A stretch of 64,000 bases of DNA from Candidatus Tayloriibacteriota bacterium. GTDB lineage: Bacteria > Patescibacteriota > Minisyncoccia > Phycocordibacterales > PALSA-1337. The notes under the pieces are model-generated. The model was not told the origin of the DNA and did not search any database. It saw only the letters and a list, made by a program, of their open reading frames with translations. This document shows positions 9,177 to 42,063 of the stretch, piece by piece. The position numbers and the translations under genes are program-made. Location of the stretch: contig PLXZ01000001.1 of NCBI GenBank assembly GCA_003151615.1, positions 3,795 through 67,794 on the forward strand. Reading direction: 5' to 3'. Positions within the stretch are counted from its first letter, which is position 1, and every line of letters starts with the position of its first letter.

Positions 9177-11135
9177 CTAGAGAGAAGGTGTTCTCCACGC
9201 TGTCTGACCTCGCATGAACGTCGCTGACGACGTACCTGTGAAGCTAGCAGTAGACCAATTGATACCAGTGAGCTGAACAGCATACTGACCTGCAGTTGGA
9301 CCATTTACCAAGAACGAGTAAGTAACTGGAATAGTTACACTCTGGTTCTGAGCAAGAATGAAGTAATTACCGTCTGACGACAATGTTGTATTCGTAGGCT
9401 GTGAATAACCAACCTGTAATCCAGTAAGATTCTGTTGAAGAACTCCGCCGAGATAGACTGCAGCGCTGCTTGTTGCAGTACTTGAGCTACCAAACGCATT
9501 ATTTACAACTGAAGGAAGACCGAACGCTACGCCTTCACCAATAGCAGTAGCATTGATGTTGAATGTTGCTATGTACTTGATTGTTGAAGTTCCAGCAGTT
9601 GTATTGTTCGAAACAACCGTGTTTGTAATCGTAGGTGTTCCAGAAAGAGCAAACACTGGACCCTGACCGAATACATTCTGAGTGTTAGCTATCGCACCGC
9701 CAGAAATAGAAGCATTGCTGTCAATCGATGTGTAAATCGATAGATCTGCGCTTCCTGTTGTAGAAGCAGTGATAATCGCTGGGGATGTAACTGTAGATGT
9801 CAAACCAGAAACATCAACCTTAACCGTGAAAGGAACGGTTGTGTTAACTGGAATAGATGCACCCGGTGTACCATCGCTGATGTTCAAGAATGTAGCAACA
9901 CCACTTGTGTTAACTGAAGCTGAAGAGATAGGTGTTGAACCCTGGTAGAGGTAAGCAGCACCAACTGTTCCGCTTCCGCTGTTAGCAATGTGTACTGTTA
10001 CGCTATGAAGATGAAGCGTATCACCGTTAGCGTTAACATCGAATACCATGACTGGAAGGCCGAGGTACTGACCCTGTGTAGTGTTTGTAACACCAACAGA
10101 ACCTTGAAGAGGGCTCGAACCATCGAGAGATACGTTAGCCTGAGCACTTGTTATTAAGCTCTGACCAATAATCATTGTCTGATTGATACTTAGGTCACCT
10201 CCATAGAGATTGACACCAGCACCATCAACCGCTCGAACACCAAGATTAGCTACACTGACAGTGTAAGCACCCGTACCTGCTGTCGGCGTACCTGTCTGAC
10301 AACCTAAGGTACATCCACTTGTGTACTGAGTATTAATTTGGTTGTAAAGGTTTGCCTCAACAACGAGATCTTTGTATGTTCCCTTTGGAACGATGAAGCT
10401 GAATCCTGCGAGACCTACAACATAGTTAGAACCGTTCTGAACTACTGTTGAATTATTCAAAGGAACAGTCGTGAGGACTGCGCCTGTTGAAGGATCAACG
10501 AGTGAAACAGAGCTGTAAACGAAGTTGTAAACTGCTGTTGAAGAACCGAGAACGAGCTGCATGCTCTGGACTGAAACGTCAGAGTACTGAGCCTGAACGC
10601 GGACATCGAGGATAGGAACATTAGACTGACCGGCATTTGCAACTGAAGTAGAAACTGGACCCTGTGTTACAGAGATGATTCCCTGTACGCCTGGAGTCGT
10701 GATTCCCGTCTGAGTTCCGGTCGTTGTCGTAACTGTCGTTCCTCCCGTGATTGCAGGAGCTGTACATGTCCAACCTGTAGGACATGCGAATCCTGTCGGT
10801 GCCATTGCTGTGCCAGTTACTCCGGCATTCAATTTTGCAACTGTAAGAGGACCTACATATCCTGTGTTAGGAAGACCTACGCTTGTCTGATAAGCAACAA
10901 CTGCTGCCTTTGTGAGGCTACCGAAGTATCCTTCAGCAACGCCTGCTGGCATTGTAAGGAAGCCCTGTGATACCAACCAAGACTGGAGAGCTACAACCTC
11001 TGCACCTGTGCTGCCTACTGAAAGGTAACCAGTGAAAGTGTATCCTGTAGCTGCGTTTGCGCTTCCGATTGTCATCGCGAATGAACCGATGGCAAGAGCT
11101 GAAGCCGCGAGACTTGCGATTAATGCTTTCTTCAT
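9177..11135 (-). CDS. Major surface (S-layer-like) protein with an N-terminal peptidoglycan-binding domain
   Basis: Likely start MKKALIAS at 11135; signal peptide; LSVGSTGAEVVALQ...GYFGSLTKAAV..YQ...GYVGPLT; Thr/Gly/Val-rich beta domains; codons strongly biased to A/T endings; long leader and strong terminator. Confidence 0.8.
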   Translation of the reverse strand: MKKALIASLAASALAIGSFAMTIGSANAATGYTFTGYLSVGSTGAEVVALQSWLVSQGFLTMPAGVAEGYFGSLTKAAVVAYQTSVGLPNTGYVGPLTVAKLNAGVTGTAMAPTGFACPTGWTCTAPAITGGTTVTTTTGTQTGITTPGVQGIISVTQGPVSTSVANAGQSNVPILDVRVQAQYSDVSVQSMQLVLGSSTAVYNFVYSSVSLVDPSTGAVLTTVPLNNSTVVQNGSNYVVGLAGFSFIVPKGTYKDLVVEANLYNQINTQYTSGCTLGCQTGTPTAGTGAYTVSVANLGVRAVDGAGVNLYGGDLSINQTMIIGQSLITSAQANVSLDGSSPLQGSVGVTNTTQGQYLGLPVMVFDVNANGDTLHLHSVTVHIANSGSGTVGAAYLYQGSTPISSASVNTSGVATFLNISDGTPGASIPVNTTVPFTVKVDVSGLTSTVTSPAIITASTTGSADLSIYTSIDSNASISGGAIANTQNVFGQGPVFALSGTPTITNTVVSNNTTAGTSTIKYIATFNINATAIGEGVAFGLPSVVNNAFGSSSTATSSAAVYLGGVLQQNLTGLQVGYSQPTNTTLSSDGNYFILAQNQSVTIPVTYSFLVNGPTAGQYAVQLTGINWSTASFTGTSSATFMRGQTAWRTPSL

Positions 11136-37433: not shown

Positions 37434-38669
37434 TTAGCCCCGCAAAATCGAATCTATTTTTTTGGCCAGTTTGACGAAGTCTTTTTCAAGTTTCCCGCGC
37501 GTCGTTTCTGCGGCGGAACCGAGGCGAATACCGGATGGGTCGGTCGGAGGGCGCTTGTCAAAAGGAATTGCATTTTTATTGACGATGATGCCGGCTTTTT
37601 CCAATTTATCACTCGCCTCCTTGCCTGAAACCGCGCCGGCTCCCTTCGCATTTTTCTGACCGTTCATCCATGTGTCAACGAGAACCAAATGCGAATCCGT
37701 TCCGCCGGAAATGATTTTCCACCCGCGTTTCGTCAATTCGCCGGCAAGAGCCGTAGCATTTTTCTTGACCTGTTTCGCATATTTTTTGAAAGCCGGAGCG
37801 GCTGCTTCTTTCAAAGCCACCGCGACAGCGGCAATTTGATTGATGTGAGGACCGCCCTGGAGACCAGGAAAAACAGCCTTGTCGATTTTTGATGAAATCG
37901 AAACCGGACCATTGGTGCCATCGACATGCCGGTCGAGCCGGCTGAAAATCATAGCCGCGCGCGGACCGCGCAGTGTTTTGTGGACCGTTGTCGTGACGAT
38001 ATCAGCATATTCAAAAGGCGACGGATATTCCTTCCCCGCAACGAGTCCGGCAAAGTGCGACATATCCACCATCAAAAGCGCGGACTGACCCGTTTCATTT
38101 TTCGCCGCGTCGGCAATGTCGCGGAATTTTTTGAAATCAATGGCGCGCGGATATGCCGTAAATCCGGCGACAATGATGACCGGTTTCTCCCGCATCGCAA
38201 TTTCGCGCAATTCCCCGTAATTGAGCTGCTCCAATTTCGCATCAACACCATATGGAACCTGAACCCAGAATTTTCCGGTAGCGGAAACTTTGTGACCGTG
38301 GGTCAAATGACCTCCATGGTCGAGCGACATGCCCATGATTTTTCCTCCGGGCGGAACGAGTGCTGTGTAAACGGCCAAGTTGGCCGGCGAACCCGACAAA
38401 GGCTGCACATTCACATGCCATTTATCAGCCGACAAACCGAAAGCTTTCAATGCACGCTCAATCGCCAACATCTCGATTTTATCCACCACTTCATTGCCGC
38501 CATAGTAGCGCTTGCCCGCATACCCTTCCGCATATTTATTCGTCAGTTCCGAGCCGAGCGCATCCAAAACATCCTGCGACACATAGTTTTCCGACGCAAT
38601 CAGATTCACGACTTTTTTCTGCCGCTTTTTCTCCGCATCAATCAGTTTTTTAATGGCGGCGTCTTTCAT
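37434..38669 (-). CDS. glyA: Serine hydroxymethyltransferase
   Basis: LIASEN, NKYAEGY..KRYYGG, GGHLTHG, TTTVHKTLRGPR, VFPGLQGGP. Confidence 0.98.
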   Translation of the reverse strand: MKDAAIKKLIDAEKKRQKKVVNLIASENYVSQDVLDALGSELTNKYAEGYAGKRYYGGNEVVDKIEMLAIERALKAFGLSADKWHVNVQPLSGSPANLAVYTALVPPGGKIMGMSLDHGGHLTHGHKVSATGKFWVQVPYGVDAKLEQLNYGELREIAMREKPVIIVAGFTAYPRAIDFKKFRDIADAAKNETGQSALLMVDMSHFAGLVAGKEYPSPFEYADIVTTTVHKTLRGPRAAMIFSRLDRHVDGTNGPVSISSKIDKAVFPGLQGGPHINQIAAVAVALKEAAAPAFKKYAKQVKKNATALAGELTKRGWKIISGGTDSHLVLVDTWMNGQKNAKGAGAVSGKEASDKLEKAGIIVNKNAIPFDKRPPTDPSGIRLGSAAETTRGKLEKDFVKLAKKIDSILRG

Positions 38670-39633
38670 GTGAATAGCTTATCATATTTTTAATCTTGAA
38701 AGTATTTCCGTGCGTTAACATACCCAAATAAGATGCAACAGTTTCTATCTTAGGCTGATGATCAAGATTCTTAAACATTCTCTTCTTTGTAGCCGTTCTT
38801 AGAACTCTATGGTCAGGAAAATGTATCCACCCAAGGAAATCGACACCTGACGAGAACGTTTTAATGAAAACTTTATCGGGATGAAGTTTCAGGGCCAGTT
38901 TTTCTTCCAAAAATAGTGACATTTTCGGCAATATATCGAGAAGCCAATCCTTGTTCCCGCTCATCACCACAAAATCATCGGCGTATCGGATATAGTATTT
39001 TGCTTTAATCGTGTGCTTCATAAAATGGTCAAAAGCATTCATGTAGACGTTAACCAGAAGCTGCGAGGTGAGATTGCCAAGCGGTAATCCCTTTCCGTCT
39101 ACTGTACTGTGGAAACTTTTAGCCACACGTCCGATAAGCCAAATGACATCAGGATCGGTAATGTACTTTCCTACAGTATCAAGGAGTATTTTTTGATCGA
39201 TTGAAGCAAAAAACTTCCGAATATCGCACTTTAAAATCCAAAGCGTCTTTGTGTTATTCTTGCTCTCCTTTAAAGCAAAATGCTTGAATCGTTCCACTGC
39301 TCGATGTGTACCCCGTAGCTTACGGCATGAGTATGAATCATAAATAAAAGTGCGGTCAAAAAAAGGATAAAGTTCGCGATAGATTGCATGATGCAAAAGT
39401 CTGTCTCGCACACTTGCCTTATGGATATTTCGTGGCTTTGGATCAGAGATATTAAAGGCATAGTAGCCTCCATGGGTATAAGTTTTATTTTTTAAATCAG
39501 TATGTAAATCAAGAATGTTATCGGATAAACGATATTGAAACTCCTGCACATCTTTCTTGCTTCGCTTCCCTTTTAGGAATTCTTTCCACGCTTCGAGCAA
39601 ATTTTCCATAGAAATGATATTGTTGTACATCAT
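38650..39633 (-). CDS. DGR reverse transcriptase
   Basis: K.R.I....VRDR..H, SYSCR...GTH, LKCDIRKFF.SI, GLPLGNLTSQ, YIRYADDFV, GVDFLG; no maturase or endonuclease domain; overlaps the glyA start by 20 bp. Confidence 0.95.
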   Translation of the reverse strand: MMYNNIISMENLLEAWKEFLKGKRSKKDVQEFQYRLSDNILDLHTDLKNKTYTHGGYYAFNISDPKPRNIHKASVRDRLLHHAIYRELYPFFDRTFIYDSYSCRKLRGTHRAVERFKHFALKESKNNTKTLWILKCDIRKFFASIDQKILLDTVGKYITDPDVIWLIGRVAKSFHSTVDGKGLPLGNLTSQLLVNVYMNAFDHFMKHTIKAKYYIRYADDFVVMSGNKDWLLDILPKMSLFLEEKLALKLHPDKVFIKTFSSGVDFLGWIHFPDHRVLRTATKKRMFKNLDHQPKIETVASYLGMLTHGNTFKIKNMISYSHERRRH

Positions 39634-39665
39634 GATTGATACAAAAATTAAGACTGATAAAGTAG

Positions 39666-39674
39666 CCCCCCCCC
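39666..39674 (+). repeat. C9 homopolymer between the likely avd ATG and the avd coding frame
   Basis: The frame of ATG 39632 stops at 39683; one extra C joins it to the 39697 ORF (MIDTKIKTDKVAPPPQRLIPVVLKLKD). Confidence 0.7.
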
Positions 39675-39696
39675 GCAGAGATTAATACCTGTTGTT

Positions 39697-40047
39697 TTGA
39701 AGCTCAAGGACACCTATGCCATATGGCAGGACTATTTAACCCATTTTCCCAAAGCTAACCGTTTTACGATTGGTTCAAAGATAGATATCCTCTTCCTCGA
39801 AGCGATCGAATACGCTTTCATCGCAAGCTATACCCATACGGCCGACAAGCATATATTCTTAAATAAAAGCATCTCTAAAGTGGATCTCATTAAGCTCCTT
39901 CTACAACTTTCGTGGGAGATAAAAGCACTCGATAACAAGAAATATATCGTGCTGTCAGAAAAATTCTCTGAAATCGGTAAGATGCTTGGAGGCTGGAAAA
40001 AGCAATTACTTAGCAAAACTCCTGAGACAAAATCTCAGGAGAAATAA
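39697..40047 (+). CDS. avd: Avd-like four-helix-bundle accessory protein, antisense to the rest of the DGR
   Basis: FPK..RFTIG.KI, L.L.......LD..KY......EIGKMLGGW; next to TR and RT; true start probably upstream across the C9 tract. Confidence 0.85.
   Translation: MKLKDTYAIWQDYLTHFPKANRFTIGSKIDILFLEAIEYAFIASYTHTADKHIFLNKSISKVDLIKLLLQLSWEIKALDNKKYIVLSEKFSEIGKMLGGWKKQLLSKTPETKSQEK
40019..40041. other. Perfect 9-bp hairpin just 3' of TR
   Basis: CTCCTGAGA CAAAA TCTCAGGAG, 14 nt beyond the TR end and inside the avd 3' end. Confidence 0.6.
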
Positions 40048-40055
40048 TGATAGTG

Positions 40056-40181
40056 GCGAACAGCCAGGAAACGATAGTTGGCATTCCAATCACCGTCCCA
40101 GTTGTTGAGGTTGAGGTTCCGCTTGGAATCGTCCTTGTTGAGGTTCGGCACGTTGCGGTTGCCATTGACCTTACCAACGGA
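40056..40181 (-). repeat. DGR template repeat (TR), 126 bp
   Basis: In the VR frame it reads SVGKVNGNRNVPNLNKDDSKRNLNLNNWDGDWNANYRFLAVR; 33 adenines, none at third codon positions; 11 AAY codons. Confidence 0.95.
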
Positions 40182-40425
40182 CCTTGTGTGAAAAACCACC
40201 CATGGCACTGCTCCCCGATAGCTTCGCGAAAGCTGCATCGAATTCGTGACATTAATCTATCACTTGGTTTCTCACACCAACTGTCTCTCTATTTTTTGAG
40301 ATCAATCCTCGAAATACTCTTTGGAAAACCTTGGTCTTCCAAACTCTCATTCCGAGGGTTGCGGACAAATTACCCAAAGCCGTGACCTTGGATTTATCAC
40401 TTGTCACTTTTCATTATATATGAAA

Positions 40426-40467
40426 ATAAAAAACCTCGCGCGACACAACTTGTGTACAACGCGAGGT
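40426..40467 (-). terminator. Stem-loop plus U-tract downstream of the DGR target
   Basis: ACCTCGCG (40433-40440) / CGCGAGGT (40460-40467) with inner ACACA/TGTGT; followed by TTTTTATTTT on the minus strand. Confidence 0.6.
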
Positions 40468-40529
40468 CTGAATTTGATGCGACCAAGGGTCCAAGATTCC
40501 AAGTGGCAAAGCGCAAGCGATGCCGATGA

Positions 40530-41288
40530 TCAAGAAACCGAGATCTGAGAGACTTTTTTGCGAACAGCCAGGAAACGATAGCTGGCACCCCAACCACCGT
40601 CCCAGCGGATGAGGTCGAGGTCCCGCCCGGAAACGCCCTCGTAGAGGTAAGGCACGTGGCGGCCGAGGCGGAGGTGCCGCTCGGAAACGTCCTTGTTGAG
40701 GTACGGCACGCAGCGGAAGCCATAGACCTTACCAACGGAGCCCAACGCAACGATCGGATACTTCCGCTGTTCTTCAGGGTTATTTTTCCCGTAAGTCAGC
40801 AGATGCTCGATCGCGGCCGGTTGCCATGGATTGGCAGTATCGTCGGTTGTAATGCCACTGACGGCATTTTCCGACGAGATGGAGCGATCGAAATGGAACA
40901 TTTTAAATTCCCACTCGTCCGCGCCGGTGTTCTTCAATGGAAATCGCTTCGCAGTGATGTCGCTGTTAGTCCAGTCGTAATTGCCGGCCTTGATCATCTC
41001 TTCGAGAGACAAGGTGCAGTCTACGACATAGACCACGATTGCGCCGACGACGGCATTGACAGTGTTCGTCACCCAGCAGGGCTCCTTGCGCAGAAATTTT
41101 TTGAGCATTTCCCACCAGGTGTTTCCGTCCTTGCCGTTCAATTTGGCGAAGAGGTCCTTGAGGACGCCGATTGCGGATTGGGCTTCTTCATTGACAATCT
41201 GGTCGAGTGATTCGAGCAGATTCAGTAACAGTCCGAGCATGATTTTCATGGTCAGTTTCCTTTCATCGCCGACTTTAGAAGTCAGCAT
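40530..41288 (-). CDS. DGR target protein with a C-terminal variable region (probably C-type-lectin-like)
   Basis: VR at the 3' end ending YRFLAVR; no clear signal peptide; alternative start at 41249. Confidence 0.9.
   Translation of the reverse strand: MLTSKVGDERKLTMKIMLGLLLNLLESLDQIVNEEAQSAIGVLKDLFAKLNGKDGNTWWEMLKKFLRKEPCWVTNTVNAVVGAIVVYVVDCTLSLEEMIKAGNYDWTNSDITAKRFPLKNTGADEWEFKMFHFDRSISSENAVSGITTDDTANPWQPAAIEHLLTYGKNNPEEQRKYPIVALGSVGKVYGFRCVPYLNKDVSERHLRLGRHVPYLYEGVSGRDLDLIRWDGGWGASYRFLAVRKKVSQISVS
40560..40739 (-). repeat. DGR variable region (VR), 180 bp, containing a 54-bp tandem duplication
   Basis: Aligns to TR in two blocks with 31 mismatches, 30 at TR adenines and 1 synonymous G>T at 40650. 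Confidence 0.95.
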
Positions 41289-41490: not shown

Positions 41491-42063
41491 CTATTTCGCC
41501 TTTCCTGCCTTCACCTCTTCTTTCTTGAACGGAAAACCGAGATGTTCCAAAAATGCGAGTGTCTGAACCTTGTCGTTTGATGAAGTCACGACCGTGAGAG
41601 CCATTCCGAAAACATCGCGGAGATCTTCGTCTGATGTTTCAGCGAAAATGGTGTGCTCGCGGATGCCGAGGGTGTAATTGCCCATTTCGTCGACTGCGGT
41701 TCGCGTTATGCCGCGGAAGTCCTTTGTGCGGGGCAATGAAATGTGGACAAGCCGGTCAAGAAAATCATTCATGCGTTTGCCGCGGAGGGTTATCTGGAAA
41801 CCAACAGGGTCGCCGGTGCGGACCTTGAATGTTGCGATCGATTTCTTCGCGCCGCGAAGAGCAGGCTTTTGGCCCGTGATTTTCGCCAATCGGTCTGCGA
41901 CGAGTTCGATTTTCTTTTTGTCCTTGATCGAGCCGATACCCGCGGAAACGACGACTTTCAAAAGTCGAGGCGACTGCATTGGATTTGTATAGCCGAATTT
42001 CGGCTGAAGCGTTTTGTATGCGCTCTTTTCCAAATCTTTGATTGTTGTGTGTGATGTTTTCAT
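41491..42063 (-). CDS. rplE: 50S ribosomal protein L5
   Basis: ITGQKP....AKKSIA.FK.R.G, LPR.KDFRG, GNYTLGI.EH.IF. Confidence 0.98.
   Translation of the reverse strand: MKTSHTTIKDLEKSAYKTLQPKFGYTNPMQSPRLLKVVVSAGIGSIKDKKKIELVADRLAKITGQKPALRGAKKSIATFKVRTGDPVGFQITLRGKRMNDFLDRLVHISLPRTKDFRGITRTAVDEMGNYTLGIREHTIFAETSDEDLRDVFGMALTVVTSSNDKVQTLAFLEHLGFPFKKEEVKAGKAK

Follow-up and report, generated by a model that had tools for sequence, protein, structure and literature searches.

Two separately mutated copies of a template segment in the variable region of a Patescibacteria diversity-generating retroelement

A diversity-generating retroelement (DGR) ordinarily rewrites the end of a gene letter for letter, without a change in length; the DGR described here belongs to an ultra-small bacterium. 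The closest described systems are the CPR/Patescibacteria DGRs of architecture B3, which make up 90% of the CPR collection in the text of Wu 2018 (PMC5758913); these combine a reverse transcriptase (RT), avd on the opposite strand, a template repeat (TR), and one neighbouring target whose C-terminus holds the variable region (VR), and their TR/VR differences are adenine-specific. Two departures from the simple substitution of letters are already in print. First, the same paper gives TR/VR length differences in 25 of 372 DGRs, of which 14 are in frame, with 74% beside AAC; the in-frame rows that we retrieved from its Table S1, by 'N bp' strings that may miss entries written otherwise, are 3 bp, except for 24 and 30 bp in Prosthecochloris (NC_011061). 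Second, cryptic integration is documented for BPP-1: according to the text of Guo 2011 (PMC3240598), integration of the 5' end of the cDNA depends on homology only, for which at least 8 bp suffices, and cryptic sites are used once the 5' end of the VR is deleted. How DGR cDNA enters its target is presented as an open question in PMC5703328.

The window that we analysed is a stretch of 64,000 nucleotides from a host genome of 923 kb (5 contigs). Its open reading frames (ORFs) and profile searches identify a complete DGR, with the RT, avd, TR, and target ORF together:

38650..39633, (-) strand: DGR-type reverse transcriptase, 327 aa, an open frame with LGNLTSQ and YADD motifs (RVT_1, E = 5.5e-24)
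39632..40047, (+) strand: avd, divergent from the RT (bAvd, E = 7.4e-12, 46.1 bits against a cut-off of 40)
40056..40181, (-) strand: TR, 126 bp, with 33 adenines and with codons 9-26 once
40530..41288, (-) strand: target ORF, 252 aa, or 239 aa from the ATG at 41249, the start used by close relatives

The organization is that of the B3 DGRs: the RT lies beside the repeats, the TR and VR differ almost solely at TR adenines, the VR is at the 3' end of an ORF, and avd is present; the SQ dipeptide is a DGR mark according to a section heading of PMC3521204. The target ORF has N-terminal helices and a predicted C-type-lectin-like domain, has no Pfam match, and its named relatives are mostly Patescibacteria records. 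On one side of the DGR, glyA (37434-38669) overlaps the RT stop by 20 nt; on the other side are apparent ribosomal protein operon genes, including an ORF (41491-42063) that we take to be rplE-like. Between the TR and the target, 50-60 nt of the stretch 40345-40405 recur, with 3-8 differences, in other organisms' contigs from four runs, hinting at a conserved element upstream of the TR. Elsewhere in the window, 464-1272 and 9319-10130 are linked by three pairs of repeats, 91-125 nt long at 72-76% identity and with a spacing of about 8.85 kb; these suggest two large paralogues, probably surface proteins.

The VR of this DGR, unlike the constant-length product of a DGR, is not colinear with its TR, that is, it contains a 54-nt tandem copy:

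40560..40739, (-) strand: VR, 180 bp, 60 codons, TR codons 1-26 followed by codons 9-42 (TR nt 1-78 followed by nt 25-126)
40662..40715, (-) strand: copy 1 of TR codons 9-26, RCVPYLNKDVSERHLRLG, 10 of 18 TR adenines changed
40608..40661, (-) strand: copy 2 of TR codons 9-26, RHVPYLYEGVSGRDLDLI, 11 of 18 TR adenines changed and one G>T
40659..40665, (-) strand: join, 7 nt (C GGC CGC) that fit either register
40711..40717, (-) strand: TCCGCTG, left flank of copy 1, partly made by adenine changes
40603..40609, (-) strand: TCCGCTG, right flank of copy 2, matching its left counterpart in the 54-nt register
40560..40581, (-) strand: likely 3' integration (IMH) side, the 22 nt of TR after the last changed adenine, its role assigned from the BPP-1 work in the text of PMC3240598

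The duplication is in frame and makes the VR 54 bp longer than the TR. In a codon-wise comparison the TR and VR have 31 mismatches, 30 of them at TR adenines; the sole non-adenine mismatch (CCG>CCT in codon 12 of copy 2) is unremarkable, given that 91 of 18,626 non-A positions differ over the 209 TR/VR pairs described below. Both ends of the VR match the TR perfectly, over 15 nt and 22 nt. The first register is unbroken to VR nt 81 and the second begins at nt 75, so the join lies inside 7 nt; it maps onto AAC codons 8 and 26-27, and the TR has CAAC at both positions. A sequence-only reading of this DNA had described the VR as TR codons 1-26 followed by codons 9-42, with 30 of 31 mismatches at adenines; we reproduced that description exactly, including both peptides. 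Its double reading of the junction, GGC CGC, is borne out as well, with both registers holding over C GGC CGC (40659-40665), as is its core, that DGR-derived sequence was joined out of register with each copy separately adenine-mutated. Prediction of DNA folds gave no clear GC-rich hairpin of the BPP-1 type directly after the VR/IMH; the clearest predicted hairpin is ~90 nt downstream of the VR (about 40433-40469), before a T run, and is terminator-like.

A trivial explanation is that the assembler strung two different 126-bp alleles together, or that amplification of the library fused them. The low depth (about 3-4) speaks for it, and the four Logan datasets behind the contig check (X1-X4) are one sample, probably the source, represented by assembled contigs and not by raw reads. 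Nevertheless, one separately assembled contig (X2 record 11, probably from the source sample at a depth of about 3.6) covers 40089-40729, crossing both copies with 0 other letters and 0 gaps and extending over 31 letters past the join in either direction; a second (X3 record 17, 40646-40854, 0 differences) also crosses it, with a short side of only 13-20 letters that falls below our bridging rule of 31 letters per side; a piece from X1 (record 5) agrees with part of copy 2, and X4 contributes nothing at the join. Colinear alleles of this TR can have at most 9 nt in common at offset 54, and 22 of the 150 31-mers in the VR are impossible from any colinear allele; thus, a k-mer assembler (k=31 for the Logan assembly, we assume) cannot create the join. 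The exact 252-aa protein is present on two contigs (NCBI and ENA), the longest of which is 562,931 nt vs 416,837 nt here; a second assembly thus concurs. The reading frame is kept across the join, and neither a 126-bp allele of this strain nor any alternative VR allele is among the listed low-depth contig pieces. The join is uncovered in four other studies: one (X5) has four identical 151-nt pieces of the locus, all outside the VR, and X6-X8 have no piece across the join, so X5-X8 give no information either way on the allele. The listed holders of the locus include no RNA dataset. Assembler concatenation, which the sequence-only reading had named as its undoing, is contradicted by X2 record 11 and by the 31-mer and offset analysis; we regard an artefact of either kind as very improbable, and the VR duplication is confirmed as real and not an assembler join.

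We collected 314 loci and found TR/VR matches in 214; filtering for a minimum of 5 A changes, non-A changes no more than 35% of these, and a core of 60 nt or more left 209 distinct pairs, and subtracting this locus and two Prosthecochloris pairs leaves 206. The screen for VRs with tandem TR segments recovered the present duplication as a positive control. In a difference from the B3 DGRs, the VR here exceeds its TR by 54 bp of tandem TR codons, and such a duplication occurs in 0 of the 206 other pairs; the rule of three gives an upper bound of about 1.5%, with the reservation that kin are not independent. Internal indels occur in 9 of the 206 pairs, all of 1-3 nt and all at or beside TR adenines. 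An off-diagonal scan of the 209 pairs for shorter extra TR segments gave nothing beyond this locus and Prosthecochloris; four off-diagonal matches at a threshold of 11-12 non-A positions were judged to be chance. The Prosthecochloris locus (L096, plasmid NC_011061.1 43500-49500), the 'extreme' length difference of Wu 2018, was rejected as a precedent: both of its VRs carry sequence that the TR lacks, which reads as a deletion on the TR side with both VRs keeping the older, longer form, whereas the 54 bp gained at the present locus are TR-templated in their own right and mutagenised.

The span from LGS to FLAVR, followed through relatives P0001-P0144, is 44 residues in 128 proteins and 42-46 in 10 more (138 measurable relatives, range 42-46; five frameshifted proteins are unmeasurable); only here is it 62. 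A region search for other duplicated VRs gave six candidates, recovering the query itself and no other. A phmmer search with the 69-aa VR against 1.84 billion representatives, a weak search because 50% clusters hide variants, gave 29 matches, none spanning both copies in one stretch; its top repeat proteins, P0146 and P0149, proved unrelated on inspection. The same-register junction pattern had 0 matches in viral contigs, and a DNA search of 41 relatives gave single-copy pieces only. A 96-aa protein (P0155) reads as TR translation followed by VR and probably came from TR and target being collapsed in assembly; proteins of this type are a trap for protein-level duplication screens. Also, ungapped TR/VR finders would give two partial matches for a VR like this one, so such duplications may be under-counted.

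The published length differences (Wu 2018, text and Table S1 of PMC5758913) resemble this one in being in-frame changes at AAC codons of a DGR target; the adjacency to AAC is shared with the small slippage indels, but the size is not (54 nt vs a few nt). A full-text literature search, with most subscription papers and Guo 2008 outside its scope, turned up no description of TR segments repeated in tandem within a VR; the passages covered from PMC3521204, PMC10907252, PMC12875486, PMC7826257, PMC5703328, 10.1101/2024.11.15.621889, and 10.1101/2025.03.24.644984 (supplements outside scope) do not describe a duplicated VR segment, and the word 'duplication' is absent from the main text of Guo 2011 (PMC3240598), figure sequences being outside that search. 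The natural VR with a tandem template segment seen here is a well-defined variant, apparently without precedent in print, from an ordinary CPR-type DGR. The duplication is rare; we read it as a probable side product of homing and do not claim it as a routine activity. The earlier proposal that the DGR varied the length of its target as well as the sequence probably holds for this single case; the 206 other pairs show no such duplication, and small length changes were already published.

We then asked what the mutations say about the history of the two copies. At the 18 adenines the copies have three shared changes (P≥3 = 0.44) and seven identical positions (P≥7 = 0.54) in simulations using the spectrum of 1,861 AAY sites from related pairs. 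With sharing at this chance level, the copies look like the products of two separate rounds of mutagenesis, that is, they look independently mutated. We therefore rejected the shared changes as a sign of common descent, including codon 13 TAC and codon 18 GTT, in which the sequence-only reading had seen support for duplication followed by re-mutagenesis. A different feature does favor that order of events, weakly: TCCGCTG occurs on both outer flanks of the duplication in exact 54-nt register, with a chance probability of 0.016 (spectrum from 19 pairs) or 0.009 (larger spectrum), for a match that was noticed post hoc. In such a DNA-level route, replication slippage or unequal crossover between mutagenesis-made TCCGCTG sequences (codons 8-10 and 26-28) would duplicate 54 bp, and later DGR patches would re-mutate the interior. 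Relatives offer a possible parallel for the patches: the alleles of one cluster (P0125/P0127 and P0007/P0136/P0137) differ in small internal patches with both ends common, a pattern that may reflect patchy conversion or assembly mosaics. Set against the flank repeat, the join itself reads GCCGCCA, so both of its sides would need rewriting with the right flank spared; homing anchored at the 3' end, as in the text of PMC3240598, would overwrite the right flank, so this route takes two atypical events or more; sharing between the copies stays at chance level; and the flank test was made only after the match was seen. We consider this route unlikely.

The join was probably made by the DGR machinery, either by integration of cDNA or by re-alignment of the RT. 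Integration, specifically that of the 5' end of a cDNA out of register into an older, diversified allele, is the likeliest route and in our estimate only slightly short of an even bet. A mutagenised cDNA, anchored at its 3' end, would integrate its other end 54 nt out of register, the old allele supplying codons 1-26/27 and the cDNA codons 8/9-42 (an order and route that we infer); the joining would proceed via no more than 7 overlapping nt, C GGC CGC, which adenine mutation of AAC codons could create. The appearance of two independent mutagenesis rounds and the position of the join on AAC codons 8 and 26 are as expected for this route. Cryptic integration in BPP-1, as presented in the text of Guo 2011 (PMC3240598), is similar in that the 5' cDNA end enters at non-standard sites via short homology; it differs in using an engineered VR without its first 20 bp, whereas here the VR is natural and intact and the gain is in frame.

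Several observations weigh against integration. The overlap is at most 7 nt, compared with at least 8 bp in the text of Guo 2011 (PMC3240598). The double reading of 7 nt is automatic from the TR sequence, so an overlap is not observable in the product; the 'earlier AAC>CGC microhomology' of the sequence-only reading is therefore unreadable, the more so as 7 nt is below 8 bp and RT re-alignment gives the same product. Exact runs of at least 7 nt between old allele and cDNA occur in ~0.9% of simulated pairs at offset 54, compared with 13-19% at offsets 27, 36, 33, and 6; 54 nt is thus not the expected size unless favored by selection. Finally, out-of-register integration does not account for the TCCGCTG flank repeat.

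The other DGR-based route is re-alignment of the RT: the nascent cDNA, having passed codon 8/9, would slip back 54 nt to codons 26-27 and recopy codons 26 to 1, and the resulting 180-nt cDNA would integrate normally via its intact ends. Under this route a single event would mutate the two copies independently, with no need for a pre-existing overlap; the cDNA end, C GGC CGC, would pair with codons 26-27 at every non-A position; CAAC is present at both join positions in the TR; and the VR ends are perfect over their 15 and 22 nt. The text of Wu 2018 (PMC5758913) puts AAC-adjacent VR indels down to the RT losing register, an explanation echoed in PMC12875486, and 9 of 9 indels in our screen lie at or beside TR adenines. 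The slips found, in our screen or in the published material cited here, are 1-3 nt, though, and longer adenine-blind matches were available elsewhere (18 nt at offset 36 and 14 nt at offset 45, vs 9 nt at offset 54). A TR RNA hairpin uniting the join sites would have helped this route; the predicted fold has none and leaves the two sites unpaired with each other. The flank repeat is left unaccounted for here too. RT re-alignment is, in our judgment, a doubtful source of the duplication, on a level with the DNA-level route.

Whatever its origin, full-length in-register homing would erase the insert and restore 126 bp. Persistence of the allele is probably explained by the state of avd, in which one further feature is relevant:

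39666..39674, (+) strand: C9 run, by which the likely ATG and the avd body fall into different frames

The likely ATG (39632) overlaps the RT start, its frame stops at 39683-39685, and the Avd body is open from 39697. In a close relative (L021), avd is in frame at the same place; the C9 run region is identical in a 151-nt contig of another study (X7 record 8). We surveyed 255 loci with an avd match and scored 233 distinct ones: 94 carry a C run (18 in frame, 75 out of frame, 1 lacking an ATG), a GA run occurs in 9, and the other 130 show neither kind; five of the 75 out-of-frame loci have a later in-frame ATG. This distribution suggests that the C run is a phase-variable switch. An OFF state of avd would freeze the duplicated allele; Avd could still be made, from a TTG at 39697 or by slippage.

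The same genome contains a second DGR, outside the window (L001 8269-11020, G000:C5 about 74.3-77.0 kb), with an RT, avd, TR, and a 267-aa target; its VR is colinear with 15 A changes, and a frameshift at a (GA)13 run, which may be a further slippage switch, divides its RT. In the close relative L021 (3467-3605; the same locus as L038, G056), one nucleotide is missing from the VR at a TR adenine pair; the frameshifted C-terminus is found in five of the six members of its cluster, one with further downstream changes, so the frameshifted target has persisted and seems to have been re-mutated.

The consequence for the protein was modelled with and without the 18-aa insert. In AlphaFold2 models built from 107-108 aligned sequences, a single-copy relative used as control (P0004) has a hairpin of strands E178-187/E190-197 with a two-residue turn (mean pLDDT 91.3); in the duplicated protein the predicted hairpin is E178-187/E208-215, its first strand from copy 1 and its second from copy 2, with a 20-residue loop (mean pLDDT 88.2), in a model that is steered by gap placement in the alignment. 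The two 10-residue blocks of the loop (188-207) have pLDDT 54 and 72. Both models match C-type-lectin folds equally in VIA-align, control and duplicated protein having Z scores of 8.8/8.6 for Bd2740, 6.7/6.9 for Mtd, and 6.5/6.6 for TvpA; the best match is the C-terminal domain of Bd2740 (Z 8.8, rmsd 2.9, 102 aligned), the alignment with Mtd (1yu0) has rmsd 2.8 over 111 aligned residues, and most of the 50 listed matches are CLec/FGE-type folds (Z 5.8-8.8, with predicted models as the query). Foldseek against 'pdb' gave no match at E≤0.001 for either model. Predicted residues about 69-235 thus resemble the CLec-fold variable proteins Mtd (1yu0) and TvpA (2y3c), with the VR as the last strands; the predicted protein differs from them in a Z of only 6.5-6.9, a hairpin loop that is longer by 18 residues, and an N-terminus made of helices. 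The duplicated target is predicted to keep the C-type-lectin-like fold with a binding loop widened to 20 residues; the duplicated unit is one whole hairpin, and this may be why it is tolerated.

A broader proposal is that DGRs have a second, low-frequency mode, in which overlaps made by adenine mutation let out-of-register cDNA add template-derived modules, with antibody-like variation in loop length in the binding site, and that this 18-residue extension was selected and then locked by avd switched off at poly-C; we think this rather improbable. The present evidence is one case in one low-depth sample with no recurrence in 206 pairs. Within these bounds, two differently mutated copies of one template segment are a footprint of the cDNA integration step, and the duplicated VR separates the three routes by predictions at the level of reads. 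If the allele is real and functional, a DGR scaffold whose length hardly varies can accommodate 18 extra loop residues, and this tolerance would bear on DGR-based engineering.
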